A DNA stretch of 61,018 nucleotides from a virus. Lineage: Duplodnaviria > Caudoviricetes. Position 1 is the stretch's first letter. Each line of letters opens with the position of its first letter. The DNA lies in IMG/VR virus record IMGVR_UViG_3300012209_000002, positions 1 to 61,018 of that record; one strand, written 5' to 3'. The notes under the pieces were generated by a model that saw only the letters and a list, made by a program, of their open reading frames with translations, was not told the origin of the DNA and made no database searches. The translations under genes were made by a program, and so were the position numbers. Shown piece by piece: positions 1 through 61,018 of this stretch.

Positions 1-123
1 ATCGCCAGCCCCTACGGCTGCACCTGGGAAGAGTTGCGCAACGATCTCAAGCTGATGTGGCGTGAAACCACCCGCGCGTCCAACTGGCTCATGACCGAAC
101 TCTACACGCGCGATTGCCGGCGC
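1..123. repeat. Terminal overlap (identical to 60896-61018); circular assembly
   Basis: First 123 nt ATCGCCAGCC...GCCGGCGC are identical to the last 123 nt, and an ORF reads through the junction. Confidence 0.97.
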
Positions 124-1035
124 GCGGGCGAGGAGAAGATGCCCCCGATGCAGCCCATCGACTTCTATACGGAGCTGAAGCGTTTCCCGGCATTGCCCCC
201 GCAGACCCGCGTGTCGCTGGCTCAAAGCTGCACCAAGAAATACAAAGCATTGCGTCGGGACGTGATCTGGACCTGTGCCAAGAGCCTGCCTAGTTTCCGT
301 TACCCCGTCCCTTTCCCCGTTCACAATCAGAGTTGGAGCGTGCGCATCGAAAAGGGACGGGCAATTCTCCGGGTGCGTATCGGCGAGGGCTGGCGCGAAC
401 TCCGTCTCAAGAGCGGCCCGCAATTCCGGCGACAGTACCGCTCCGTGCAACTGATAGCGAGAGGCGAGGCGATTACCGGCGAGGCAGCCATTTACCAGCG
501 TCAGTTCGAGGGGAAGTCCGCGCTCATGGTCAAGATGGTGGCTTGGTTGCCGCGTACTCCAGTCACGGGACTCAAGCCGGATTCGGTGTTACCGGTCTAC
601 ACACGGAAAGACGCGCTCCTGCAAGCGGTCAACACCGAGGACGAAGTACTGTGGACCTACAATGCGGATCACTTGCGGAGGTGGAGCGAGGAACATCGCA
701 AGACTCTTCAGAGATTGGCGGACGACAACAAATTCGAGGCCCGGCCAGTTCCGAGCTTCACGGATCGCCGTACCGCCCTGGTGCGGAAGTATCGCGACCG
801 CATGGACTCGGCCACGCACGAGATCGCCGCGCAACTTGCCTCGTACGCCGCCCGCCGCAAGTTCGCCGTAATGCGCTACGATGACACGGAGCGGGGGTTC
901 TGCGAGAGCCTGCCGTGGTACCGTTTAAAGCTACTGATCGAGCAAAAGTGCGAGGCGCTGGGGATACGATTTGAAGCAGCAGGCCCAAAAGAGTCGGAAA
1001 CGAAAGAATCGGAAGCGAGAGAAAACCAGCAGTGA
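1..1035 (+). CDS. 3' part of nuclease-dead TnpB/Cas12f-like RNA-guided DNA-binding protein (full gene 60680->junction->1035, 416 aa)
   Basis: C-terminal region follows the TnpB/Cas12f pattern: LVRKYRDRMDSATHEIAAQLASYAARRKFAVMRYDD (bridge helix/RuvC-II) and LPWYRLKLLIEQKCEALGIRF. The RuvC-I GxDxG is replaced by PVYTRKD, and the protein ends before the C-terminal Zn finger/RuvC-III. Confidence 0.75.
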   Translation: MASPYGCTWEELRNDLKLMWRETTRASNWLMTELYTRDCRRAGEEKMPPMQPIDFYTELKRFPALPPQTRVSLAQSCTKKYKALRRDVIWTCAKSLPSFRYPVPFPVHNQSWSVRIEKGRAILRVRIGEGWRELRLKSGPQFRRQYRSVQLIARGEAITGEAAIYQRQFEGKSALMVKMVAWLPRTPVTGLKPDSVLPVYTRKDALLQAVNTEDEVLWTYNADHLRRWSEEHRKTLQRLADDNKFEARPVPSFTDRRTALVRKYRDRMDSATHEIAAQLASYAARRKFAVMRYDDTERGFCESLPWYRLKLLIEQKCEALGIRFEAAGPKESETKESEARENQQ

Positions 1036-1083: not shown

Positions 1084-1304
1084 AGGTCACCGAGGTTAGC
1101 AGACCTAGGGGCAGAAACGCTGAGAACGCTTGCCGACTCAGTATGTGATTGCCCAAATACCGTAAAGTGTTTCGGGATATCTCAGCAGTGTAAAAGCGAG
1201 CGGTCCTGGAAAACGGCGAAAGTCCAGAAGGCTTGAGACCTGCCGTTTCGGTGAAGCGAGAGGCCCGGCGGAAGAGAAAGAGCCGAAACCGCTCGCAAGA
1301 TCGG
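1084..1304 (+). ncRNA. Putative guide scaffold RNA copy 1
   Basis: Hairpin AGGTC/GACCT with loop ACCGA..; stem CTGAG/CTCAG enclosing invariant loop AACGCTTGCCGA (1125-1136); GGGATA; GCGAGCGGT (1196-1204) pairs with ACCGCTCGC (1288-1296). Confidence 0.65.
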
Positions 1305-1334: not shown

Positions 1335-1479
1335 ACTGTCCTACCGTACAGGACAGTTCCGACGACGCCGGGAACGCTTGCCGACCCGGTCGCTCGGATA
1401 GATGCTGGTAAGTCTTGGGATATGTGCGGCTTGCCGCGCCAGCCCTGAGAGCGAGCGAAAGCGAAAACGCTCGCTACGG
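1335..1479 (+). ncRNA. Putative guide scaffold RNA copy 2 with fused first repeat
   Basis: Hairpin ACTGTCCT/AGGACAGT with loop ACCGTAC; stem CCGGG/CCCGG enclosing AACGCTTGCCGA (1373-1384); GCTGG/CCAGC; GGGATA; anti-repeat GAGCGAGCG (1449-1457) pairing with CGCTCGC-TACGG (1468-1479). Confidence 0.75.
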
Positions 1480-1650
1480 GCCAAGAAATGGTCTTTCCGC
1501 CATCCACGCCAACGGACTGAGAGCGAGCGCAAACGAAAACGCCCGCTGCGGGTACCTGGCGAAAGCGTAAAACGCGCGTCGGATCGGCAGGAAGATCGCT
1601 ACGGGGTGCCAGCATTGGCCGCTCGCCGCGGGATGGAGAATTGAATTTAC
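1468..1650 (+). CRISPR. Non-canonical mini-repeat/guide array cognate to scaffold 2 (consensus CGCTCGCTACGG)
   Basis: Repeats at 1468 CGCTCGCTACGG, 1540 CGCCCGCTGCGG, 1593 AGATCGCTACGG and 1620 CGCTCGCCGCGG, separated by largely unique sequence. Confidence 0.5.
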
Positions 1651-1804
1651 AGCCCACCGATTAGGGCTAGGCTAGACATACGCTGGAAACGCTTGCCGAT
1701 TCAGTAGCTCTGGCGAAGGCTGGTCCCACTCCTCGGGTTAGTTCTCGTTGAGTGGGCGTAAACACTCCAGATACCTCTTGAAGGGAGCAGCCTGGGGAGC
1801 GACC
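1651..1804 (+). ncRNA. Putative guide scaffold RNA copy 3
   Basis: Hairpin AGCCC/GGGCT with loop ACCGATTA; GCTAGA/TCTGGC; stem CTGGA/TTCAG enclosing AACGCTTGCCGA (1688-1699); GGCTG/CAGCC; anti-repeat GAGCGACC (1797-1804). Confidence 0.75.
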
Positions 1805-1859
1805 TTTGACATTCCAGAGGCAGTTGCGGGGCACATCGCGGCTTGCGGCAACCTTGGCC

Positions 1860-2041
1860 GATCGCATCGGGACCGTCTCTATTTTCGAATCCCGGGAATG
1901 TCGCATCGGTTCAGGTCGCGTCGGGAGCCGCTTCGAGGCGCCGGTGCTATCCAACGCCAATCTATCTTTTCCCCGTCTCTTACTCCATACTTGCGGTTTT
2001 AGATCGTTAGGGTCGTTTCGGTCGGTTACGGGTCGCGTCGG
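1860..2041 (+). repeat. Cluster of GGTCGCNTCGG mini-repeats downstream of scaffold 3
   Basis: Copies at 1860, 1899, 1914, 2011 and 2031 (another at 2278), all on the + strand, irregular spacing. Confidence 0.65.
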
Positions 2042-2055
2042 GAGAGGTTGCCATC

Positions 2056-2277
2056 GTGTCGGTCAATGCGGATCTCTTGTGTCTATTCACCGAGTTGCGC
2101 CAGGAGATCCGCGATTCCAACCTCGAACGCCGGGAATCGGAGAGGGCCTTGGATCTTCGGTTGCGGCGGCTGGAAATTGCGCTAGTGCGGCATCGGGTGC
2201 GGGCGCGGATGTTAACAGCGGCGTGCGGGGCGGGAGCCAGCGCGGCCACGCACCTATTCGCGAAATATTACCATTAG
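2056..2277 (+). CDS. Small hypothetical protein, possibly lysis-associated
   Basis: 73 aa, GTG start after GGAGAGG; coiled N-terminus and weakly hydrophobic C-terminus. Confidence 0.55.
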   Translation: MSVNADLLCLFTELRQEIRDSNLERRESERALDLRLRRLEIALVRHRVRARMLTAACGAGASAATHLFAKYYH

Positions 2278-2327
2278 GGTCGCGTCGGGTAAGGTCACTC
2301 TGCGGAGTCGCCGAGGAGCATCTGAAG

Positions 2328-2588
2328 ATGAACATCGTGAATTCGGCAAAAGGCGAACTGGTGCAAACGGTTCTGCGCAAGATTGTCGACGGCAATACCG
2401 GCAGCACTCTGTTAGGCGGTGTGGCCGTGGCAATTCTGGCCTCGGGCGCCAGCTTTCCCGATTTGTTTTCGACGGATCAAAGTAAACTCGCGCATGCCTG
2501 GGGGCTGGCGATCGGCGGGGCGATTCTGGGCGTCTGGGGCTGGAAGATCGGCCGCAAGCCCGTCGCTCCCGCGCCGCCCGCTGTGTAG
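2328..2588 (+). CDS. Holin-like membrane protein
   Basis: 86 aa from ATG after GAGGAG; two hydrophobic helices (TLLGGVAVAILASGA, WGLAIGGAILGVWGW) and a basic C-terminus. Confidence 0.55.
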   Translation: MNIVNSAKGELVQTVLRKIVDGNTGSTLLGGVAVAILASGASFPDLFSTDQSKLAHAWGLAIGGAILGVWGWKIGRKPVAPAPPAV

Positions 2589-2870
2589 GTCGCTTCGGGG
2601 TGCGTCTGTCGCCTCGACATCGTCCTGATTTGCAGGTTGCTTCGTGCAAGGGCCGATTGGACGCAAAACTACTGTGATTTGGGCCGCTTCGGAATAAGCG
2701 TGCAGGTAACGTCGCTTCAGGATAATCCTCGCGTGGATTGCCGGTCGCCTCGGAGTATGCTGCCCGCCCCCGGTCGCTTCGGTGCTTTGATCGGCTTGGG
2801 TAGTCGCCTCGGGAACGAGGAATACGGGCCGCGCAGGTCGCTTTGTCTTAATGTACCGGCCATTGGACCG
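2588..2870 (+). CRISPR. Non-canonical array of nine 11-nt repeats (GGTCGCYTCGG) with mostly 17-23 nt spacers
   Basis: Repeats start at 2588, 2607, 2635, 2682, 2710, 2743, 2772, 2802 and 2836; spacers are 8, 17, 36, 17, 22, 18, 19 and 23 nt; intergenic between convergent genes. Confidence 0.65.
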
Positions 2871-2877
2871 ATAGCGG

Positions 2878-5202
2878 CTATTGAGCGGCGGCCTGCTTCG
2901 GTTCCGGTTGCTGCGATTTTGCCTCTTGTGCCACCCGCGCGGTTAGTGCCGTTGCTGCGGCGGTCCATGCTGGCGTGCGTACGGGCAGTGTCATAGCTTG
3001 AGTCAACAGTTTTGCTCCACCGGGGCTGAATAAGATCCGCGATCCCAACCAAGGCAAGCCGACGGCCCCGGTTATCTCCAATGCCGCTTGTCCCAATGCC
3101 GCTTGCTTAAACCCTCCGGTAATTGCCGTCACCAAAGCGTGCGCAACCGTTCCGTAAGCGCCTAATGCGTACCAACTGGAAGAAGTACCCGAAGGATTCA
3201 TAATCCGGCTGACCCGCTTGGATGCCAGCATGAACTTATCCAAATCCCCGGTGAGCTGCTTGCCGAACAACAGCTCCTTGGTTTCCGGCCCCAGTCTGTT
3301 CCAGTCGGCCGCAATCCCGGCGCTCCGTCCGAATCCGCCTTCTTTCGTGGATTTATCGATCAGCCCTTCCAGAAACGTGCGTCCGGTGGTTTTCAGTTCG
3401 TTTGGAGCGATCTTTCGCAACTCCCGCAAGGTATTCAACGAACGGTCGCCGCCTTGCACCAAGTTGTAGTAAAATTTCGCGGGCTCCTCGCTCATATCCT
3501 GAAACAGCTCATCCACGTTATGATAGGCACGCACCAATCGTCGGCCGGCTTGCAATTTGCCGAGAACGTCCGATCCCGCCCCCTGCACCGCTCGTTGGAA
3601 TTCGGTTTCTCCTTGCGCGATCGTCATCTTGGCGAGACGCTGCGATTGTGTGGAAAGATAAGGGCTGTCGCCATCGCGCGCCAGTGCTTTCACCGCGCTC
3701 AAGGTCCGGTCGAAATCCATGGCATTCATGAATTTCTTGTCCGAAGTCATCAATTCTTCGAGACTGCGCCATGCTGGGGAATTGGCCCGCCGCGCATCCG
3801 GCAAAGCCCGCTTCAGATCGTCGTAAACCGGCGCTAATCCTTGACGAATGGGCGCGAGATCGACGGGAGTTTCCAGAACGCTGTAAACGGGCACCTGGCG
3901 CGGCATTCCAGCGGGTGTCAGCGTGGCCAACGGGTTCGCTCCGGGCACCGTTTTCGTTCCGGTCTGCACGGTTTGTCGGTTAACCGCTGTCGATTGCCGC
4001 ACCTCGTTGTAGAGTCGATCGGCTTTCCCTTTTAACTGCGCGGTCAGACGAATTCGTCGCTGAATCAACGCCTGTCCCGCGCCGTAAGGATCGGTGACTT
4101 GTCCTCCTGCCCGCGCCGCCAGTTGCTTTTCTTTGCCGGCTAACGCTTCTTCGGTCGCCATACGGGCCTTACTGGCGCGGATGCCCGAGCCCGGCAGACT
4201 TTCCATAGTCTGCTCCACCCGCTTCAATCCGGGATGGCCCGTCCGCTGTCCAATGCTCAATGGCACGTCTTTCTCGATGGACTGAACGGCGGCTTCTTCC
4301 ACCGGGTTATAGACATTGCGCACGGCCGGTTCCAAACGGATTCCTTTGGGCAGCAATTTGGCCGCAGACGGCGCCAGCAATTCGAGCGTATGGGCCGCGC
4401 CCGCACCGTAGCGTCCTGCGCGAAAGTCTTCTCCGGCCTGTACCGCACCTGGACCGGCTATCGGCAAATACGATGCAGCGCGATATCCCAAACCGGCAAT
4501 CCCCGGCTCTTTCTTAGACTTCTCGTACATTTCCCGCTGCTGCCCGTACATCGCACGGCCGGCTTGAATCGGATTCTTCGCTGCCTCTCCGATCGCAGCC
4601 GGCAGATTGGAAATGTCCCCCCAGAGCGTACCCCAAAATCCTTTTGGCTGCATCGCTGTGTTTTGCAAGCCCAATTGCACGGCATTGGCTTTTTCCTTAA
4701 GGGGCAATGCTTTAAATGCCGGATCGTAGGCATCCAGCACCTTGATCTTTTCGATTCCAGGCAATTGCCGGAAGTTCGGGTCGGCGAAGATCTTACTCAA
4801 CTCGTCGGCCCCGCTTGACTGTTCGCCAGTTCTTTGCGTTTGATCCACGATTAGTTTGCCCGATTTGTCTACCAGCCGGTCGCCTTCCCAATGCGGCGCT
4901 TCCTCGGTCGCATACCGGGATTCTTTGGAAAAGTATCTGTGATACGGCGTTTTGTAGGTATCGGGGAAGTGTGCGCTGCCACCGCTCTTAACTCGCGTCT
5001 CCCGTTCCGCCATAGCTTTTGTGTCCCGAAAGAATCCGCGCATGTCGTAGTTAGAGGTCGGCGATTCGGTCCATGGGATCTTATTACTCTGCACCCAGAT
5101 TTGGAATTTCTTCTCTTCATCCGGCGGTAGTTTGGTGAGGTACGGTCCGGGTTTGGCAAAAGGAGACGGCGAAGTAAGTTGCTCGCTCAGTTCGTCAGCC
5201 AC
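2878..5202 (-). CDS. Putative virion ejection/internal (DNA transfer) protein
   Basis: 774 aa, A/G/Q-rich helical protein at the distal end of the virion operon, as in podoviruses. Confidence 0.55.
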   Translation of the reverse strand: MADELSEQLTSPSPFAKPGPYLTKLPPDEEKKFQIWVQSNKIPWTESPTSNYDMRGFFRDTKAMAERETRVKSGGSAHFPDTYKTPYHRYFSKESRYATEEAPHWEGDRLVDKSGKLIVDQTQRTGEQSSGADELSKIFADPNFRQLPGIEKIKVLDAYDPAFKALPLKEKANAVQLGLQNTAMQPKGFWGTLWGDISNLPAAIGEAAKNPIQAGRAMYGQQREMYEKSKKEPGIAGLGYRAASYLPIAGPGAVQAGEDFRAGRYGAGAAHTLELLAPSAAKLLPKGIRLEPAVRNVYNPVEEAAVQSIEKDVPLSIGQRTGHPGLKRVEQTMESLPGSGIRASKARMATEEALAGKEKQLAARAGGQVTDPYGAGQALIQRRIRLTAQLKGKADRLYNEVRQSTAVNRQTVQTGTKTVPGANPLATLTPAGMPRQVPVYSVLETPVDLAPIRQGLAPVYDDLKRALPDARRANSPAWRSLEELMTSDKKFMNAMDFDRTLSAVKALARDGDSPYLSTQSQRLAKMTIAQGETEFQRAVQGAGSDVLGKLQAGRRLVRAYHNVDELFQDMSEEPAKFYYNLVQGGDRSLNTLRELRKIAPNELKTTGRTFLEGLIDKSTKEGGFGRSAGIAADWNRLGPETKELLFGKQLTGDLDKFMLASKRVSRIMNPSGTSSSWYALGAYGTVAHALVTAITGGFKQAALGQAALEITGAVGLPWLGSRILFSPGGAKLLTQAMTLPVRTPAWTAAATALTARVAQEAKSQQPEPKQAAAQ

Positions 5203-5205
5203 GGT

Positions 5206-6957
5206 TTATTTTCCGATTCCACGCAGACGCAGGTACTCATCGGCGGTTTTGGGAGGTGGTCCCGGAGCACCCGTAGGTCCGCTCGGCCCAGATGGTCCTG
5301 TAGGTCCGCCCGGCCTTGGCCCCGCACCTTGCCCTGTATCTTGCGCCGGTCCCCCAATCTCCACCCCGCCTTCCGTCATCGCCGGACTGTTTCTGATCGA
5401 GTTCAGCCGGTATCCTAGGTTCTTGCGCGTCAAGTTCACCGCGGCCCGCAGCGTCTTGTCGTCCCAATCGCCGCTTAGAATCTTCATGGCCTGCCCGAGA
5501 CTTTTATCGGTAGGAGTGTTTCCTCCCTGATAGACTGTGGCGAGTTCGGATTGCAGATCGGTGATTTGGATATCGAGAAGCCGCGCTGCTTCCGCCGCCG
5601 GTTGCCCGAAAATTCCGCTTTTCGCCGTGTTCAATGCCAGTTTGTTGATAATCGGAAACTTGGTGCGCGGAACGGCATTGCGTAAATCTCCGAGCAAATC
5701 CTTACCCGGTTGTTGAGAATTGTCGATCAGGTCCAGACTTTCCACGGTGAAATCGACGGCTTGCCGCAATCGCACCTGCGTCGGTCCGTTCAAAGTCCGT
5801 ATCCAGATAGTTGTAGCCATCCAGTCTTTCTGGGCTTTGGCGAGATTGTATCCTTCCCTAGCCAGTTCGGCGGTCACGCGTCCCGCCATTCCTGTACGAC
5901 CCAACCCTGTCAGCATGGGCGACAGCAACCCATTTTTAATCCCTTGTGCGATGCTGGGCGCATCTTTCTCTGTCTGTTGCAAGTTGATGATGGACGCGGG
6001 CAGACGGTCGGCCTTGGTAATGGATTCCTGTCGCGCTTTGGCGTATGCCTCTGCAAACGGCATTCCTTTGGCCATGAATGCGTCGGTGCGAAATCTGGTA
6101 ATTGTAGCCATCTGATCGGATGCGTAATATTGGCGCGCCTGTTCTCCTTGTTCTGGAGTCAGCGGTAATTTCAATCCTGCCTTTTGTGCGTAAGCCTGAT
6201 GTAATTCCTCATCCTTCAGTTTGGCTTCGGACGGTACAGCGGGTTTATCGGTGCGAGTCCAGTTTTCCGGCGGTCGGAACGTTTTGCCCGCCATGCGATA
6301 CACATCGGGAGGATCGGTGGATAACTTGTCCAAAATTACGACGGTGCCATCCGGCTTGAGAAAATGCGCTTCCTTCTCGGAACCGGTTTTGGCCTCGACA
6401 TTGTACAGCTTGGCAATGCCGGTATCGTACTGATCCTTGGTAATTTGTCCGGTGCGTAGCGCCTCATCCAGCCGGTCCCGTCCCGTTTCGATTCCCATTT
6501 GCTGGGCAACGAACAAATCTTCGTCCGCCTGCCGCTGTACGATGCTTTTCTTTTGCGCTTCCCGTTGGGCTGTCTGCTGCGCGATTTCGTCGCGTTTGAC
6601 TCGTACCTGTTCCGGAGTAAGGCTGGCTCCCGCGGGCATGGGCGGCACCGCCGGTCCCTTCCCCACCGGGTCCAGTTGCCCTAGCCCCTTTCCCATGGCC
6701 TTTCCCGCGCCTGCCAATGTTCCCAACATGCCGAACAGCTTCCCCGAGTGCTGCTTCATCTGTGGGGGGCCTTCTTTCTGAAACAGCTTTTCGTAGTTCT
6801 GCAGCGCCCAGGCTTTGAGCACGGAAGGATCTTGACCGGCGGACAGCAATTCTTCGTCGGGCGCGGTGAACAGGTGTGTATACATCGCCGACTGGTTCAT
6901 CACGTCGCGTTGCTTGGACTCCTGATGCGTCCGAATCAGATTGGTGATGACACCCAT
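5206..6957 (-). CDS. Putative ejection/internal virion protein with collagen-like C-terminal GXX tract
   Basis: 583 aa; GPTGPSGPSGPTGAPGPPP near the C-terminus; operon position. Confidence 0.55.
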   Translation of the reverse strand: MGVITNLIRTHQESKQRDVMNQSAMYTHLFTAPDEELLSAGQDPSVLKAWALQNYEKLFQKEGPPQMKQHSGKLFGMLGTLAGAGKAMGKGLGQLDPVGKGPAVPPMPAGASLTPEQVRVKRDEIAQQTAQREAQKKSIVQRQADEDLFVAQQMGIETGRDRLDEALRTGQITKDQYDTGIAKLYNVEAKTGSEKEAHFLKPDGTVVILDKLSTDPPDVYRMAGKTFRPPENWTRTDKPAVPSEAKLKDEELHQAYAQKAGLKLPLTPEQGEQARQYYASDQMATITRFRTDAFMAKGMPFAEAYAKARQESITKADRLPASIINLQQTEKDAPSIAQGIKNGLLSPMLTGLGRTGMAGRVTAELAREGYNLAKAQKDWMATTIWIRTLNGPTQVRLRQAVDFTVESLDLIDNSQQPGKDLLGDLRNAVPRTKFPIINKLALNTAKSGIFGQPAAEAARLLDIQITDLQSELATVYQGGNTPTDKSLGQAMKILSGDWDDKTLRAAVNLTRKNLGYRLNSIRNSPAMTEGGVEIGGPAQDTGQGAGPRPGGPTGPSGPSGPTGAPGPPPKTADEYLRLRGIGK

Positions 6958-35522: not shown

Positions 35523-36040
35523 CTCCTCTCCGGCACCGTCCAATTCCCGATGTACTGCCAGCTCATGATCAGCTCGCCGTCGGCGGCATAAGCGAAGATA
35601 TTCCGCACGCCGCTATAAGTTTCCCGGAACGATACGTCCAAAGTCAATTCCAGGACGTCGCGCGAGATGCGCCTGGCTCGCGAACGCAACATGTGAAACG
35701 CGCATTGCCGGTTGGCGACATCCGGCAGTTTGCCGAGATTGCCCATGATCCACTGCTCTCCGGCATCGTCTTGCACGAACACATTGGCCGGGGCATTGTA
35801 CTCCGCGCGGCAGTTGCCCGGCCCCGCCACCCGCGAGCCGAAACAGATATCCAGCTCCTGCACGCGGGCGGCGCCCTGCGAGCTGGACACATAGAAGCGG
35901 AACGTTTGCGACCAGCCCGCGCCGCTTCGAGGCTCCACGCGAACGGTCAGGGAAGGCAGAACCGCGCGAACGGCGAAATACATGGTAAGCGGAGCCAGCA
36001 AGATGACCAGGCTGGCCAGGATAGTCTCGCGAAGAGTCAC
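35519..36040 (-). CDS. Membrane-anchored beta-sandwich protein
   Basis: N-terminal TM; P.SGAGWSQTFRF...LTLDVSF...RNIFAYA...WQYIGNWTV. Confidence 0.6.
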   Translation of the reverse strand: MTLRETILASLVILLAPLTMYFAVRAVLPSLTVRVEPRSGAGWSQTFRFYVSSSQGAARVQELDICFGSRVAGPGNCRAEYNAPANVFVQDDAGEQWIMGNLGKLPDVANRQCAFHMLRSRARRISRDVLELTLDVSFRETYSGVRNIFAYAADGELIMSWQYIGNWTVPERR

Positions 36041-55211: not shown

Positions 55212-55430
55212 ATGACCGTCCAAGAGTACGCCCGCGAACGCTTCCGGAAATGGATCGAGAAAATAGACGCCGAAAACGCGCTGCCTCTGTTTGTGTACGC
55301 AACCGATGCGGGCGGAAGACCGCTGCTGCTGGGAGACGGCAACATGTCCATGGAAGAACTCCGCGCGCTGGTGCGGGATCTGGCGCAGATTATCGAGCAC
55401 GCGCAGTTCGTGAAAGGAATCGTGCAATGA
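55212..55430 (+). CDS. Hypothetical protein
   Basis: MTVQEYARERF..., coupled to the next gene. Confidence 0.5.
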   Translation: MTVQEYARERFRKWIEKIDAENALPLFVYATDAGGRPLLLGDGNMSMEELRALVRDLAQIIEHAQFVKGIVQ

Positions 55431-56299
55431 AGACAGTCCAGCAATCCGAGCCGGTCGAGATCCAGTCCGCCCCCGCGCTGGACGGCCCCGGGGAAACTTT
55501 CCCTGCCGTCCAGCAATTCAAGCAGGAGTTAGACAGATACGACCGCGCCGAGATCCTGAGTACGATCCGCCAGACCGTCTGCCGCGGAGCCTCGGACCCG
55601 CAGTTTCGCATGTTCATCGAGGTCTGCAAAAGCACCGGGCTCGATCCGTTTCTCAAAGAGATCTGGTTCGTACCCGGCGTTGGCATCATGGCCGGCCGCG
55701 ACGGTTACCTGCGCGTGGCCAACCGGCACCCCCAATTCGACGGCATGAAAACGGTGGTCGAGCGGGATGCCAAGAACGTGCCCATTAAGGCCGTGTGCGA
55801 GGTCTGGAGAAAAGACAGGGCGCACTCGGTCTCGTGCGAAGCGTATTTCAACGAGTACGTAAAACCGACACCCTCCTGGAAGCAGTATCCGAGCGCGATG
55901 ATCGGCAAAGTCGCGGAGGTCATGGCCCTGAAGCGGAGTTTCAGCATCAACGGGGTGGTGACCGAGGAGGAGATCGGCAGAAACCCGCCCGCGCCCGTGG
56001 GAGTGCCCGTGGAGATCGAGGCTGCGCCGGAGCCACCCGTGCAAATACCGTCCGATTGGACTGTCGGTCGCGAACCGGCTTACACAGTCGCTTCAGAGAA
56101 ATCGGAAGAACCGCGCTCTCAATGGGGCAACCGTGGCGCCATGCGAAAAGCGTTCGCCGCCGAACAGACGCGCGTGGGCGAGGAAGTCTACCGCGCCGCG
56201 CTCGACAAATGGCGCGCGCGCGATCTGCTCTGGCCGAACGCCCAAGCCGCGGAAGAGTGCTATCGCTGGCTGAGGGAGCAACCGGAGAAATCTGCATGA
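55427..56299 (+). CDS. bet: RecT/Bet single-strand annealing protein
   Basis: FIEVCKSTGLDPFLKEIWFV..GRDGYLRVA..HPQFDGM..WKQYPSAMIGKVAE..LKRSF. Confidence 0.9.
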   Translation: MKTVQQSEPVEIQSAPALDGPGETFPAVQQFKQELDRYDRAEILSTIRQTVCRGASDPQFRMFIEVCKSTGLDPFLKEIWFVPGVGIMAGRDGYLRVANRHPQFDGMKTVVERDAKNVPIKAVCEVWRKDRAHSVSCEAYFNEYVKPTPSWKQYPSAMIGKVAEVMALKRSFSINGVVTEEEIGRNPPAPVGVPVEIEAAPEPPVQIPSDWTVGREPAYTVASEKSEEPRSQWGNRGAMRKAFAAEQTRVGEEVYRAALDKWRARDLLWPNAQAAEECYRWLREQPEKSA

Positions 56300-56718
56300 A
56301 CCGGCATCAGAAGATTGCGCTGGAAAATCATTGCCGCCTAGCGGTGGAGTGCCTGCACCCGCGTTTTCACTGGATACGCAGCGGATTTTCCGTCATTCTT
56401 ACCGTTAACTCGGGTTACGAATGACAAGAAGCGGGTTTTGGCGGGCCGGTCTGGCACGTCTCGGTAAGAGGTTATGGGGACTTGCGAAAACAAGCGTTTT
56501 TAACGCTGGAAGGCGTTGGCGACGAGCAAAAGGGACAATGGGAAGAACATGGACAAGATTTGAAAGCTTATCACCTGCGCCGGCGGTTGTCCGATGCGGA
56601 GCAAAAACTGGCGGGCGGGCTCGTGGACGTGGATATTCGGAATTCGCCGGAATACGGAATCCGCCGCGCCGCCATGCAGCCTTATCTTCCCCCGCAATAT
56701 GCGGATTGGCAGGAGTGA
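56296..56718 (+). CDS. Hypothetical protein interrupted by an in-frame TGA at 56422-56424
   Basis: MNRHQK...NSGYE*QEAGFGGPVWHVSV...DWQE reads in one frame. Confidence 0.55.
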
Positions 56719-56733
56719 TGCCGGAATAACGTT

Positions 56734-57216
56734 ATGACAATTGCATTGCTGGCTGCCAAATTGATACAGAGCTTCGAGGGGGTCAAGCTGCGTTCGTATT
56801 TCGATAAAACCGGGAAAGTATGGACCGTGGGCTGGGGTCATACGGGTTTCGATGTCGAGCCGGGCATGGAAATCACTTTAGAGGAAGCAACAGGATATTG
56901 GATGGATGACAGCGCTCCCCTGATTGCGTTAGTCGAAGACCGCCCCTTGATCGAGGCCGCGGCTTTAGTCAGCTTTGGCTATAACTGCGGGATCGGAGCC
57001 TTGAAGCGCGTGCTCTCGGGCGAGATCGAGGTCACCCACGAGGAGTTCACGGTGCGCGACTCGCGGGCGCCCTATGGCGAGTTGTCGGGCGGGGTGAAAC
57101 TGGCGGGGTTGTACGCGCGGCGGCAACTGGAGGCGGCCTTGATCGAGGCGAGCCGGGAAATGCTGAGCCAGGAACCGATCCGCGAAATGCTACGGGGCGG
57201 GAAGGGGCCGACATGA
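56734..57216 (+). CDS. Endolysin, GH24 lysozyme
   Basis: FEGVKLRSYFD..VWTVGWGHT, ALVSFGYNCG, GLYARRQLE. Confidence 0.9.
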   Translation: MTIALLAAKLIQSFEGVKLRSYFDKTGKVWTVGWGHTGFDVEPGMEITLEEATGYWMDDSAPLIALVEDRPLIEAAALVSFGYNCGIGALKRVLSGEIEVTHEEFTVRDSRAPYGELSGGVKLAGLYARRQLEAALIEASREMLSQEPIREMLRGGKGPT

Positions 57217-57635
57217 TCCGCCCATTGACCCGCGCCGAAATCCGCCGCATGAAAAAGCTCTGGGCCAAAGTGCCGCCGATTACCGGCTGTAAGGGCCTCT
57301 GTTGGGAATCCTGCGCCAACGCTCCCATGCATCCCGTCGAAGCGCGGTATCTGGGAGCGAAGTATCCACGGCAAACTGGAGGCGTGGAACGGCTGTTGGA
57401 ACTGCCGATTTTGGGGCCGCGCGCCGAGACGCTGGAACCGGCCGACTGTCCGTTTCTCGTGAACCGGCGATGCTCGATCTACGAAGATCGCCCGCTAGTG
57501 TGCCGATTGTTCGGCCAGCCTTTATTGGGTCACTTGCGATGTCCATACGGCTGCGACACGACGCATAAGCTAACCGCACAGCAAGGCGCGGATTTGATGA
57601 CAGCGATGGCGCAAGCGGGAAACGAGGTTTCGTAA
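57213..57635 (+). CDS. YkgJ-like CxxCxxCC metal-cluster protein
   Basis: CKGLCWESC..CPFL..CSIYEDRPLVCRLFG. Confidence 0.85.
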   Translation: MIRPLTRAEIRRMKKLWAKVPPITGCKGLCWESCANAPMHPVEARYLGAKYPRQTGGVERLLELPILGPRAETLEPADCPFLVNRRCSIYEDRPLVCRLFGQPLLGHLRCPYGCDTTHKLTAQQGADLMTAMAQAGNEVS

Positions 57636-57637
57636 CA

Positions 57638-57859
57638 ATGCCTGGATATACGCGGGGAGGGTCGATGAGCACCTGGGAATCCTCCTGCGAGCTGGAGCCC
57701 GGCACGCCTCTGCCCCCGCCCTTCGAGCTGCTGAAGATCGGCGAGCTGCTGGGACGCACACCCGCAGGCAACTATCTCTACCGGGTGGGAATTGAGGGAG
57801 AGCCGGTTGCGGACAACGAAATGGAGTTTAGCAGAGAGGCGAAAGAGGTGCAGGAGTGA
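57638..57859 (+). CDS. Hypothetical protein
   Basis: Operon context. Confidence 0.5.
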   Translation: MPGYTRGGSMSTWESSCELEPGTPLPPPFELLKIGELLGRTPAGNYLYRVGIEGEPVADNEMEFSREAKEVQE

Positions 57860-58098
57860 AAATCGCCGTCTGGATTCACCGTCAAGGCCGCCACGAAACC
57901 CAATGGGGCACCTTGCGCGCCTGGATCCTGCAGGATGGCAGGCGTGGCGTAAATCTGCTGGCCGAGCATAAGCCGACCGATCTGGAAAACGCCAAACGGC
58001 AGATCCGGCACGCGCTGGAGCAAAAGCTGGGAAGCGTGGAAATCGAGTGGATGGGCGAGGGAGCGGAATCGCCAGTAACGAAGGAGGCGCATGAGTGA
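57856..58098 (+). CDS. Hypothetical protein
   Basis: GTGA-coupled. Confidence 0.55.
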   Translation: MKIAVWIHRQGRHETQWGTLRAWILQDGRRGVNLLAEHKPTDLENAKRQIRHALEQKLGSVEIEWMGEGAESPVTKEAHE

Positions 58099-58330
58099 TC
58101 CTCATCGACCGGAGATTTCATTAGTTGCCGATGAAGGCAGAGCATTTAGTTATATGGCAATTGAGTTGGACATGGGCGATCTCGATCGGTTATGCGCTCT
58201 CGGTTCGGTGGGATGGCATTGCATTGCCATCGACAAAGATTATGCCTTGTTGGAACGGGAAATACCGAAGCATCGGATTCAAGCAGTGAGACAGTATTAC
58301 GAAGAACGAAAAACAGAGGTAGGTCAATGA
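58091..58330 (+). CDS. Hypothetical protein (inserted cassette)
   Basis: AT-richer than neighbours; bounded by 21-nt near-identical direct repeats. Confidence 0.6.
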   Translation: MSDPHRPEISLVADEGRAFSYMAIELDMGDLDRLCALGSVGWHCIAIDKDYALLEREIPKHRIQAVRQYYEERKTEVGQ

Positions 58331-59110
58331 ATGATCCTCATCGACCGCCGCGAAGACGAGCAATTGACCCGCGAACTGGCTCGCTTCCACTTGCCCTTCG
58401 CCTGCGTCGAGTTGCCCTGGGGCGATTGCTCGTTCGCGGGCAAAGGGCCGGACGGTCCGCTCCTGATCGGCTTCGAACGCAAGCGCCTGCCCGATCTGAT
58501 CCATTCCATGCAGGACCGCCGCCTTGCCGGTTCCCAGCTCGTGGGCATGCGCCAGCTCTATGCCCGTGTCGGCCTGGTGGTGGAAGGACTGTGGCGCCCC
58601 GGCCAGGAAGGCACGATCGAGGTGCAGGATGGGCATGGAGAATGGGTCGAGTATTATCATCGGAAAAAGCAGGGGATTGCCTGGCGCCAGATCGACTCGT
58701 TCCTGCAATCGCTGGTGGAGCTGTGCGGGGTGGAGGTATGGCGCACGGCCACCGTGCGGGAGACGGCGCACTTGTACTGTTCCCGGTACCGCTGGTGGCA
58801 GAAAGACTATGCGCTACATCGCAGCCACCGGCAGATCCACGCGCTCGATCCACTGGCGGCGCGCGGGGGAAGAGTGGAATTCGGGCGCGAACCCAATGCG
58901 ATCGTGCGAGTCGCGGCGCAGATCCCCGGCATCGACCGGAAGGCGTGGTCAATTGGGGAACAGTTTGGGTCGGTGTGGGAAATGACCGATGCTTCGATAG
59001 AGCGCTGGGAAAGCGTGTGGTGGGACGACGGCAAAGGGAAGCGCAAACAGTTCTCGCGGGAGAGCGCGAGAAAGATCGTAGCGTGGTTGCGGGGATTGGA
59101 AGTCGCATGA
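58331..59110 (+). CDS. ERCC4-family structure-specific nuclease
   Basis: ILIDRRE, GDCSF, FERKRLPDL..S, LVVEG, HhH-like QIPGIDRKA. Confidence 0.88.
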   Translation: MILIDRREDEQLTRELARFHLPFACVELPWGDCSFAGKGPDGPLLIGFERKRLPDLIHSMQDRRLAGSQLVGMRQLYARVGLVVEGLWRPGQEGTIEVQDGHGEWVEYYHRKKQGIAWRQIDSFLQSLVELCGVEVWRTATVRETAHLYCSRYRWWQKDYALHRSHRQIHALDPLAARGGRVEFGREPNAIVRVAAQIPGIDRKAWSIGEQFGSVWEMTDASIERWESVWWDDGKGKRKQFSRESARKIVAWLRGLEVA

Positions 59111-59114
59111 GATC

Positions 59115-59192
59115 GGTCGCGTTGGTGTATCGAGCCGTGGACGGAGCAGAAGTCGCGTCGGAAAGTTCTCGGATGGAATTTGGTTGCGTCGG
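59115..59192 (+). repeat. Mini-repeats upstream of scaffold 4
   Basis: GGTCGCGTTGG at 59115, AGTCGCGTCGG at 59151, GGTTGCGTCGG at 59182. Confidence 0.55.
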
Positions 59193-59244
59193 GTTGATCG
59201 AGGAACGGATTTCGGGGAGCGAAGCAAGGATATTTACGGACTAC

Positions 59245-59392
59245 GGGCTACCGAACAAGCCCAGGCCGACTAACGCCGGGAACGCTTGCCGACCCGGTCG
59301 CGTTGGCGAAGGCGGTTCTCCGGAAAACCGGGGATGAAACGCTTGGGATAACCCGGCTGGAACCAACGCCGGGTCCGCCCCAGGAGTGACTG
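59245..59392 (+). ncRNA. Putative guide scaffold RNA copy 4
   Basis: Hairpin GGGCT/AGCCC with loop ACCGAACA; GCCGAC/GTTGGC; CCGGG/CCCGG enclosing AACGCTTGCCGA (59281-92); GGCGG/CCGCC; GGGATA; anti-repeat GAGTGACTG (59384-92). Confidence 0.75.
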
Positions 59393-59528
59393 ACTACCTC
59401 GCGGGAGGATTCGGCAGTGAACTCGGGTTGGAGTGTGGTATCGAAGAACGAGTTGAGTCGGGACCAGTAACGAGTCGCTAAGATTTAGTTACTTCGGAAT
59501 GTTCGTTCAAGTGCAAAAAGGAGAGCGC

Positions 59529-59921
59529 ATGGCATCGCCATCGAAAGACAGATTGAGACGCGCGAACGCGAGCAAACTGACTCCTGTCGAGTCCATGGAG
59601 AATCTGGAGACGCGCAAGCGCCTGGAGTCCCTGTTGCGGGAAGCGCTTGTCCTCAAGGTCCGTATGTCCGCCGACGAGGAGGATTTGGAGCGCATCAAGA
59701 CCGAGCTGGGCGGTCTCGTGCAAGCGCTCAATCTGGCTGGGGTGCGCTCGGGCCTGGTCGGGTTCGAGTGCTCGGGATGGCAGCGGCGCAGCAATCTGCA
59801 AAAGTCTCTGCTGGTGGATCTGCTCTCGCGTTATGGAGCCCCGCTGGAGGAGCTGGAGCGGTGCTACACGACCGGGGAGCCGTATCTGATGACCAGATTG
59901 CATGTGTTCGATGCGGAGTAG
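59529..59921 (+). CDS. Hypothetical protein
   Basis: RBS AAGGAG; 130 aa. Confidence 0.6.
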   Translation: MASPSKDRLRRANASKLTPVESMENLETRKRLESLLREALVLKVRMSADEEDLERIKTELGGLVQALNLAGVRSGLVGFECSGWQRRSNLQKSLLVDLLSRYGAPLEELERCYTTGEPYLMTRLHVFDAE

Positions 59922-59925
59922 AAAA

Positions 59926-60183
59926 ATGAACATTGAAAACATAAAACCTGGCGAGAAACCCGATTGTGTGATTGCGTTAAATAAAGACGATCCGTGTTAT
60001 CGGCCATCCGAGGGCGTAATCGACAATAAGTGCTTGCTATGCGAAGCCACTGTAGCACTGGATCGGGCTAGCCAAGCATTGATGCCTTTGCCGGTTTATT
60101 GTTTGACATGTTTCATGCAATTCAGAAACGCCAATGTTGTGATTAGAAGAGCAGCACCCGTGCATGTGTTCGATGCGGAGTAA
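59926..60183 (+). CDS. Small Cys-rich protein (inserted cassette)
   Basis: CLLC..CLTC; AT-rich; bounded by 22-nt direct repeats. Confidence 0.55.
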   Translation: MNIENIKPGEKPDCVIALNKDDPCYRPSEGVIDNKCLLCEATVALDRASQALMPLPVYCLTCFMQFRNANVVIRRAAPVHVFDAE

Positions 60184-60184
60184 C

Positions 60185-60228
60185 AGTCGCTTCGGTAAAA
60201 ACGATGTGGAGTAGGACAGTCATTTCGG
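60185..60228 (+). repeat. Two mini-repeats cognate to scaffold 4
   Basis: AGTCGCTTCGG at 60185 and AGTCATTTCGG at 60218, 22-nt spacer. Confidence 0.55.
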
Positions 60229-60679: not shown

Positions 60680-61018
60680 ATGTCCGTGAAATCCCCCGAA
60701 TCCCCCGAGCCCGATGTCGTCGCAGTCGAAGTCGTCTGCTGCGATTGCCGGAAGCGCCGCAAGACCAAACTCACCCCGGCCGGCAATCCGCGCACGCCCA
60801 TGGGCTGGCACAAGCACGACAAGGACGCCGAATCCGTGGTCTATTGCCCCGACTGCTGGGCCAAGCGCTATCTGCTCCGCGCCGTCGCCATGCCCATCGC
60901 CAGCCCCTACGGCTGCACCTGGGAAGAGTTGCGCAACGATCTCAAGCTGATGTGGCGTGAAACCACCCGCGCGTCCAACTGGCTCATGACCGAACTCTAC
61001 ACGCGCGATTGCCGGCGC
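60680..61018 (+). CDS. 5' part of the nuclease-dead TnpB/Cas12f-like protein, with N-terminal zinc finger
   Basis: MSVKSPESPEPDVVAVEVVCCDC...YCPDCWAKRYLLRAVAMPIASPYG runs in frame into position 1; missed by the ORF track. Confidence 0.8.
   Translation, partial: MSVKSPESPEPDVVAVEVVCCDCRKRRKTKLTPAGNPRTPMGWHKHDKDAESVVYCPDCWAKRYLLRAVAMPIASPYGCTWEELRNDLKLMWRETTRASNWLMTELYTRDCRR
60896..61018. repeat. Terminal overlap identical to 1-123
   Basis: Exact 123-nt match. Confidence 0.97.

Follow-up and report, generated by a model that had tools for sequence, protein, structure and literature searches.

Organization of the locus

IMG/VR record IMGVR_UViG_3300012209_000002 (Duplodnaviria; Caudoviricetes) is a soil phage sequence of 61018 bases, which was analyzed over its whole length and is referred to here as the window. 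It carries a direct terminal repeat of 123 bases, 60896–61018 being identical to 1–123, so that position 60896 continues as position 1. Across these ends runs a gene for a 416-amino-acid (aa) protein resembling nuclease-dead Cas12f (dCas12f), from an ATG at 60680 to a stop codon at 1033–1035. It is accompanied by four putative guide-RNA scaffolds (S1 to S4) and by 25 listed copies of a 12-nucleotide (nt) sequence, hereafter mini-repeats. Gene, scaffolds, and mini-repeats all lie on the + strand and make up one zone extending from ~59100 through the record end to ~2870, where a long minus-strand gene converges on it (Table 1). We consider it fairly probable that this zone encodes a phage-borne, nuclease-dead Cas12f-like system for RNA-guided DNA binding, whose guide RNA is split at an unusual place.

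A Cas12f-like protein lacking catalytic parts

The phage protein has the fold of the TnpB/Cas12 superfamily (WED-REC-RuvC). A profile of 47 homologues matched Cas12f structure 9nzq (E 5.7e-7; profile positions 114–387) and another Cas12f1 (E 7.5e-4), with a weak match to the nuclease-deactivated Cas12f 9n9c (E 0.02). Similarly, the ESM Atlas model of the exact 416-aa sequence found its nearest neighbors in TnpB/Cas12f clusters (template-modeling score 0.63–0.71 over ~330–360 residues), including 365-aa Bacteroidota clusters without Pfam domains. Pfam and PHROGs searches with the protein itself gave nothing useful, and in particular no Pfam match to the TNB domain (PF07282).

The RuvC-I Asp of Cas12f aligns with a variable, non-conserved residue in this family, the RuvC-II Glu aligns with Asp366 of a conserved YDD (Asp366/Asp367), and the protein terminates ~40 residues past these two aspartates, without RuvC-III or zinc finger. 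The protein accordingly lacks the RuvC D-E-D triad plus TNB zinc finger of an active TnpB/Cas12f nuclease, and the product is, by its sequence, a predicted nuclease-dead Cas12f/TnpB-like protein in which the complete RuvC site is missing.

Four scaffolds, two fused and two open

All four scaffolds contain the core GAACGCTTGCCGA: the copies at 1124, 1372, and 59280 are perfect, and the one at 1687 deviates by a single mismatch. When the window was scanned with a covariance model derived from relatives of the locus (see below), exactly these four scaffolds were recovered, with the next match at E 0.43; no Rfam family matched in the window at gathering thresholds. The initial annotation had described S2, S3, and S4, and every loop, anti-repeat, and repeat that it quoted was located in the sequence. 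S1 is a fourth scaffold, additional to that account, and S4 falls outside the interval 1335–1924 given for the feature at the time.

S2 illustrates the fused form: its anti-repeat GCGAGCG and the repeat segment CGCTCGC form a hairpin, and the ensuing TACGG complements the loop of the first hairpin, CCGTA, ahead of a putative guide. S1 ends in a terminal hairpin (AAACGGC...GCCGTTT), then CGG and T. S3 and S4, on the other hand, are open, S3 resembling the trans-activating RNAs (tracrRNAs) of clustered regularly interspaced short palindromic repeat (CRISPR) systems: they end with the anti-repeats GCGACC(T) and GTGACTG, respectively, to which no 3′ strand is attached.

Table 1 Position and properties of the gene parts, scaffolds, and repeats in the window
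Feature	Position	Strand	Properties
dCas12f-like gene, 5′ part	60680–61018	+	ATG at 60680; N-terminal CxxC...CxxC motif; weak zinc-ribbon match
dCas12f-like gene, rest	1–1035	+	TnpB/Cas12f fold; RuvC-I Asp missing; ends before TNB zinc finger and RuvC-III
S1, fused single guide	1084–1252	+	Covariance model 32.0 bits, E 3e-6; first hairpin 1084–1106 with CCGAG loop; core 1124–1136; terminal hairpin 1211–1248; putative guide from 1253
S2, fused	1335–1480	+	Covariance model 99.6 bits; loop CCGTA 1344–1348; anti-repeat 1451–1457; repeat CGCTCGC-TACGG 1468–1479; putative guide 1481–1516
Second full-length 36-nt repeat unit	1517–1552	+	Includes its own hairpin, then TGCGG; spaced 72 nt from the first unit; family D4, 89% identity
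S3, open, tracr-like	1651–1805	+	5′ half 37.7 bits; 3′ half weak match 1755–1825; loop CCGAT 1657–1661; anti-repeat 1799–1805
S4, open	59245–59392	+	Covariance model 52.5 bits; loop CCGAA 59251–59255; core 59280–59292; anti-repeat 59386–59392
S2-type repeats	1468, 1540	+	CGCTCGC-TACGG, CGCCCGC-TGCGG
S2-type bare 12-mers	1593–1631	+	1593 AGATCGC-TACGG; 1620 CGCTCGC-CGCGG
S3-type repeats (n = 14)	1859–2846	+	Starts 1859, 1898, 1913, 2010, 2030, 2277, 2587, 2634, 2681, 2709, 2742, 2771, 2801, 2835; degenerate toward the end
Mini-repeats just upstream of S4 (three)	59114–59192	+	Starts 59114, 59150, 59181; S3-type, best partner S3
S4-type repeats (n = 3)	59486–60228	+	59486 TAGTTAC-TTCGG; 60184 CAGTCGC-TTCGG; 60217 CAGTCAT-TTCGG

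Mini-repeats follow their neighboring scaffold

Each mini-repeat is complementary to a scaffold in two places: its 5′ half to the scaffold's 3′ strand, and its 3′ half to the first hairpin's loop. Only two 36-nt units, 72 nt apart, occur in the window, and the second of them is a CRISPR-like remnant; all other repeats are 12 nt long and spaced by ~15 to 310 nt. A regular type V-F CRISPR array, with ~36-nt repeats and spacers of like length, was thus not found in the window. Two small open reading frames (ORFs; 2056–2277 and 2328–2588) are interleaved with the S3-type repeats, and the S4-type repeats occupy intergenic gaps ahead of ORFs starting at 59530 and 60242/60252.

The repeats are confined in both place and orientation. 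Exact copies of GTCGCNTCGG occur ten times in 61 kb, ten of ten on the + strand and all within 1900–2812 or 59152–60195. Allowing one mismatch, the total of 31 compares with 33.0 expected from shuffling, i.e., there is no genome-wide excess; 19 of these 31 fall inside the two zones, every one of them on the + strand. With ties split, the neighboring scaffold was the best pairing partner for 18.7 of the 25 repeats, against a permutation mean of 10.2 and with none of 5000 permutations reaching this value. It is the anti-repeat half that carries the neighbor signal (neighbor best for 17 of 25; P 0.0006), while the 5-nt loop half taken alone was not significant (11 of 25; P 0.13). Adjacent repeats in the window are probably copies of one another, and these P values are therefore optimistic.

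It had initially been suggested that the scaffolds and their repeats form partly orthogonal pairs. The class differences are modest: in the pseudoknot, S2 (CCGT:ACGG or GCGG) differs from S1, S3, and S4 (CCGA:TCGG) at one position, and the anti-repeats of the S2 class and the S3/S4 class differ at one to three positions. Moreover, the S4 anti-repeat pairs with S3-type repeats via G-U wobbles, and the fifth base of the S3 loop finds a Watson-Crick partner in just two of 14 S3-side repeats, the first two after S3. The description is therefore fair for S2 versus the rest, and weak for S3 versus S4, which cross-pair.

As a separate observation, CGCTCGC-AAGA-TCGG at 1290–1304, inside the putative S1 guide, resembles a mini-repeat of the S2 type whose two halves are separated by 4 extra nt.

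Both helices covary across homologous loci

Nineteen loci were aligned as fused or first units, and the pseudoknot was defined as loop positions 2–5 paired with the four bases preceding the last repeat base. In the consensus fold, 23 of 26 nested pairs showed compensatory changes, or 26 of 30 pairs with the pseudoknot included. Altogether, 94.2% of 566 alignment cells were paired, a value reached by none of 500 shuffles and compared with 34–45% in slid controls; the 3′ ends of seven single-guide loci in this alignment had been set by eye with the expected complement known. The pseudoknot helix paired in 76 of 76 cells, with three of its four pairs varying on both sides and one of them present in five types (AU 7, CG 6, GC 3, UA 2, UG 1).

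When repeat ends were delimited automatically, 11 of 12 array loci paired fully, the maximum in 20000 permutations of loops against repeats being nine of 12. The one miss (L007) was a failure of the boundary rule, and this locus pairs when read by eye. A further 12 model matches came from loci outside the model; one was cut by the contig end and 11 were scored. Seven of the 11 paired fully by the model alignment, adding the new types CCAC:GTGG and CCCT:GGGG, and another two (L060 and L062) did so when the array repeat consensus was used, giving nine of 11. Across loci, the loop thus appears as CCGT, CCGA, CCGC, CCGG, CCTC, CCAT, TCGC, TCGA, TTGC, CCAC, and CCCT.

These data bear out the original proposal that both halves of the repeat pair with the scaffold, since pseudoknot and terminal helix covary across homologous loci. 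By covariation, tracrRNA and repeat appear to pair through two stems, a long one and a short one that forms the pseudoknot, as in type V-F systems, and as an RNA structure the predicted feature is real and well supported. They also speak to a quite different account, in which a phage protein recognizes the 12-mers as DNA, be it as operators or as promoter elements, and their complementarity to the scaffolds is incidental. In its favor, the mini-repeats are short, intergenic, and confined to one strand, and they cluster near early-type genes (here RecT-like and ERCC4). Yet this account does not predict that loop and motif change together across loci, which is what we see, and it leaves unexplained why, in fused loci, the motif forms the 3′ side of a continuous hairpin. 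The covariation brings it close to refutation, and we regard it as highly improbable.

Relatives of the phage locus use three guide-RNA layouts

Relatives of the protein, ~400 aa in length and without a Pfam domain, number more than 292. The loci compared comprised 12 viral loci, 13 from genome contigs (one being the same phage), and ten further viral loci; most of the other genome-contig loci carry the titles of Acidobacteriota or Bryobacterales metagenome-assembled genomes (MAGs). In nearly all loci, a scaffold directly follows the gene. Three layouts were observed. The first is one fused guide (L018, L020, L022, L023, L024, L026, and L028). In the second, the scaffold precedes a CRISPR-like array of 72-nt period whose ~36-nt repeat contains the whole last hairpin (L007, L008, L009, L011, L013, L015, L016, L019, L025, L029, L061, and L062). 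The third consists of arrays of 10–13-nt half repeats and is found in the window, L005, L006, L055, and L060; L021 and L050 are hybrids. L006, L055, and L060 hold ~30–46 half-repeat copies each, with ~46 in 2 kb, or one per ~43 nt, in L060. A single scaffold is usual; L006 has two, and the four of the window are the maximum among the loci compared. Fused and split guide forms hence stand side by side within one family.

The initial annotation went on to propose that the phage locus may be an intermediate between a fused omega-RNA and a tracrRNA/CRISPR arrangement. The protein tree points the other way: its deepest branches are all loci with full arrays of 72-nt period (with a midpoint root only, and with L016, L015, and L029 as long branches), and the window groups with L005 (support 100/97) inside a set of array and single-guide loci. 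To judge from this tree, the mini-repeats probably arose secondarily, by reduction of CRISPR repeats, and were not a step toward them. This is the direction that the available text of PMC10691335 already proposes for sigma-associated dCas12f.

Chromosomal guides match outer-membrane protein genes

Significant guide matches were obtained in two lineages of relatives, and none for the guides of the window in the phage, in 301 sampled genomes, or, for two of these guides, in IMG/VR. In the first lineage, L020, L024, and L026 lie directly after an operon of an outer-membrane efflux protein, a membrane-fusion protein, and a resistance-nodulation-division (RND) pump. Their guides share 14 nt, GAT CGN AAT CAR GG, which vary at codon third positions only and encode D-R-N-Q-G of the F-D-R-N-Q-G site of efflux outer-membrane proteins. 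In all three of these chromosomal loci, one nt separates CCGG from the start of the conserved guide, in agreement with the guide start expected 3′ of NCGG in the initial annotation. Among 138 guides compared, sharing was seen only between L020 and L026 (and L024).

The full degenerate codon pattern occurs once, three times, and twice in the three genomes. The copy in the adjacent operon has two to three wobble mismatches to the guide in each of them. In G002, another efflux gene is an exact match to the guide with a TTC flank (~0.05 expected), and in G003 the same site of a second efflux gene differs from it by one mismatch; Pfam assigns both of these second genes to OEP. We note that the 14-nt guide thus fits the adjacent gene less well than it fits another efflux outer-membrane gene in the genome, and that L042 (G001), L043 (G002), and L044 (G003) sit at the end of an efflux operon with a CusB-like fusion protein, the putative targets being L034 and L035.

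In the second lineage, L028 (4767–4926) adjoins an outer-membrane gene with CarboxypepD_reg and beta-barrel domains, similar to TonB receptors. The first 16 nt of the L028 guide match exactly within a paralogue 2.4 Mb away (~0.004 expected) and, with one mismatch, within another (L068, L069, G309), the matches lying on the antisense strand of the genes. Matches in outer-membrane genes of relatives would fit RNA-guided repression of surface-protein genes, and the chromosomal guides thus point to such repression. Searches with two arrays gave nothing of this kind: the L025 array had no target in five host MAGs, and the L060 array had no significant match in its own 96-kb record.

In the window, the guide after the repeat at 1913 (1925–1940) shares a 13-nt run with 35919–35933, without a TTC flank (~0.2 expected in a 14-nt scan).

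A split guide RNA and its alternatives

From anatomy, pairing, and relatives, we infer the following mechanism. The scaffold would carry all structural modules as far as the last hairpin, of which it includes only the 5′ strand; a 12-nt mini-repeat would supply the 3′ strand of that hairpin (6–7 base pairs [bp]), and its next 4–5 nt would pair with the loop of the first hairpin to form a pseudoknot, the guide beginning one nt further. S1 and S2 would serve as fused single guides, whereas the open scaffolds S3 and S4 would serve many units of mini-repeat plus guide in trans, with all units read from one long + strand transcription unit. The resulting complex may then bind matching DNA that has a short motif on its 5′ side, for which the efflux-gene matches suggest TTC, and prevent transcription while leaving the DNA uncut. 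The sequence anatomy, the covarying RNA pairings, the protein fold, and the loss of catalytic parts are shown by the data; the production of these RNAs, their binding by the protein, the repression of transcription, and the choice of targets are inferred, the function being extrapolated from relatives of the phage locus.

Several observations weigh against this proposal. The distal repeats of the window are degenerate (TTCAG, TTTGT, CTTCGT), and the spacers of L005 are just 8–10 nt long, too short for a useful guide unless reading continues into the next repeat. Searches with the window guides gave no convincing target. Within the phage sequence, no 16-nt comparison exceeded 14 identical positions, which is near the chance level. 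In 301 genomes from the order to which G002 belongs (including the unpublished G226, on which no claim rests), only GC-rich low-complexity matches were found, none anchored at the guide start. Two 18-nt guide starts had two and one matches in IMG/VR, again close to chance, none extending beyond the 18-mer. The L018 and L022 guides had no significant second match, and the 5′ flank is unlike between the two examples of targets (TTC versus TTG/GTG). With respect to pairing, L050 pairs at three of four pseudoknot positions, and pairing is absent from L027, whose gene is truncated, in addition to the by-eye boundaries mentioned above. Finally, a search for RNA sequencing runs containing the window DNA listed none. 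As for DNA, contigs from four soil runs were near-identical, without array variants.

Part of this evidence is what one would expect if the mini-repeats were the decaying remains of an ancestral CRISPR-like array of 36-nt repeats, with only the fused S1 and S2, or perhaps nothing at all, still functional: the degenerate distal copies, the short L005 spacers, the target searches without result, and the full arrays on deep branches all count in its favor. Decay does not readily explain, however, why the 12-mers retain exactly the two segments that pairing requires, why they follow the anti-repeat of the local scaffold, why every copy is on one strand, or why the three large half-repeat arrays hold so many copies. 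Furthermore, S3 and S4 end precisely at the anti-repeat and hence make sense only with partners in trans. On balance, we find decay unlikely.

The close association of some repeats with genes raises another possibility, namely that they act in cis on a polycistronic phage mRNA. A complex of scaffold and protein would dock on the 12-nt tag, hold the following 5′ untranslated region and ribosome-binding site, and thereby control translation or stability of the next gene, or turn mRNA leaders into guides. Indeed, the repeats at 2030, 2277, 59486, and 60217 end 14–39 nt before start codons, with the guide stretch overlapping the ribosome-binding site, and in neither zone are the units divided by a sigma-70 promoter consensus or a useful terminator consensus. 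According to the available text of PMC11246509, reprogrammed tracrRNAs can turn mRNAs into Cas12f1 guides. Most repeats nevertheless precede no gene (1468–1631, 1859–1924, and the dense 2587–2846), and neither the 2-kb array of L060, with its closely set repeats, nor the relatives with ordinary spacer arrays fit such a role; the intergenic gaps may simply be the sole places where repeats do not break genes. To this reading, too, we assign a low probability.

Returning to a guide RNA split between open scaffolds and mini-repeats, one may go a step further and regard the open scaffolds as natural programmable tracrRNAs. Any 12-nt-tagged stretch of an early transcript, the phage's own gene leaders included, would then become a guide, wiring guide production to phage transcription; the scaffold variants would act as partly separate channels; and half-repeat arrays would be a separate and recurring solution by which many guides are encoded in the absence of a CRISPR adaptation machine. 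We consider this extension speculative and rather doubtful.

Comparison with known systems

In type V-K transposons, delocalized CRISPR RNAs (crRNAs) have short atypical repeats, and natural mRNA-derived crRNAs exist for Cas9; in both examples, a truncated repeat that keeps just the tracr-pairing part can still load a guide. Those are single special-purpose guides beside normal arrays, whereas in the window the truncated form is the main array.

Like type V-F Cas12f1 systems, the phage locus combines a small effector of TnpB-derived fold with a guide 3′ of the repeat and two-helix repeat:tracrRNA pairing. It differs in that the long stem is just 6–7 bp and the repeat 12 nt instead of ~36, in having four scaffolds, irregular spacer lengths, and no detected Cas1, and in an effector without RuvC-I, RuvC-III, and the TNB finger. 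The guide RNAs of Cas12b and Cas12f1 contain a long repeat:anti-repeat stem and a short one of 5–7 bp in a pseudoknot, both of which are described as reprogrammable in the available text of PMC11246509.

The nuclease-dead Cas12f homologues in the text of PMC13472631, which include a sigma-E-free cluster near CRISPR arrays, share with the phage protein a C-terminal truncation that removes part of RuvC while the Cas12f-like fold is kept, and relatives of the phage protein adjoin RND efflux operons as well. The example given there is from Chitinophagaceae, while the present loci are viral or in Acidobacteriota-labeled MAGs; in addition, no sigma factor was found in the phage, and the guide matches lie within coding sequence, not promoters. 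The operonic rpoE partner of dCas12f-sigmaE activators is thus missing here. Half-repeat arrays and multiple scaffolds find no mention in the passages considered from that source, supplements and figures aside.

For sigma-associated inactivated Cas12f, the available text of PMC10691335 proposes the order RuvC-III loss, minimization of the array to a half repeat beside the tracrRNA, fusion to an omega-like RNA, and duplication into omega-RNA arrays. The window likewise holds half repeats, fused guides, and duplicated scaffolds together, in another protein lineage and another gene context. Unlike in that scenario, the half repeats themselves are multiplied into arrays (of up to dozens) served by open scaffolds, a state that the same text does not describe. 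Given that the protein class, the two-helix pairing, and the idea of array minimization are already published, it represents an extension and not a new principle. A literature search returned no paper on half-repeat arrays or on the Acidobacteriota and phage members, which supplements and figures of PMC13472631 and PMC10691335 may list.

TldR proteins (10.1101/2023.11.30.569447; PMC13622181) are, in the available text, nuclease-dead and RNA-guided, with short guides against host surface-structure genes and partly encoded beside a target paralogue. The present family appears to share these traits. There, however, TldRs are described as direct TnpB descendants with a single fused omega-RNA, whereas the window family is nearest to Cas12f, most members having arrays. 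The best solved-structure matches of the phage protein are Cas12f and not TnpB, and repeat arrays are frequent among its relatives, which bears on any assignment to TldR.

If the split guide holds, it suggests a natural lower limit for a Cas12f-type repeat of 6–7 bp plus a 4–5-bp pseudoknot; very compact multiplexed guide arrays would be possible, and a 12-nt tag on a transcript may suffice to make a guide. A family with fused guides, classical arrays, and half-repeat arrays also offers a natural record of guide-RNA splitting and fusing. Chromosomal guides suggest that Acidobacteriota and the phages that infect them control surface proteins by means of RNA guides, in parallel to the TldR–flagellin case. 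TldR guides are said to concern fliC.

Gene neighborhood and further observations

Upstream of the zone, 55250–59110 contains early-type phage genes for a RecT/Bet-like annealing protein, an endolysin-like protein, a CxxCxxCC protein, and an ERCC4 nuclease, these being the only matches among the neighboring ORFs. Neither Cas1 (PF01867), searched for without Cas2 and Cas4, nor sigma-70 region 2 (Sigma70_r2) was found anywhere in the 61-kb record. A scan of metagenome contigs with a single protein yielded one locus, which ends right after the gene. In L057/L062, a single 40.5-kb viral contig, the homologous gene crosses the contig ends as it does in the window.

In L007, L009, L011, L013, L019, and L025, the 3′ end of the gene encodes ...EPLAxE and reads CCGCTCGC(G/A)GA..., closely resembling the conserved CCGCTCGCGGAAGG hairpin within the following scaffold. 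The likeness of CCGCTCGC and CCGCTCGCGGAAGG may reflect a duplication, or an RNA that overlaps the gene end; the ...EPLAxE tail is not present in the window protein. Two spacers of the L025 array (5166–5182 and 5293–5309) have 17 nt in common, which form a terminator-like palindrome with the repeat end (TGGGCAAATTGTTTTTGCCCA). In L020, a tRNA-like sequence recognized by eye at ~5010–5085, ~120 nt past the guide, hints at an integrated element.

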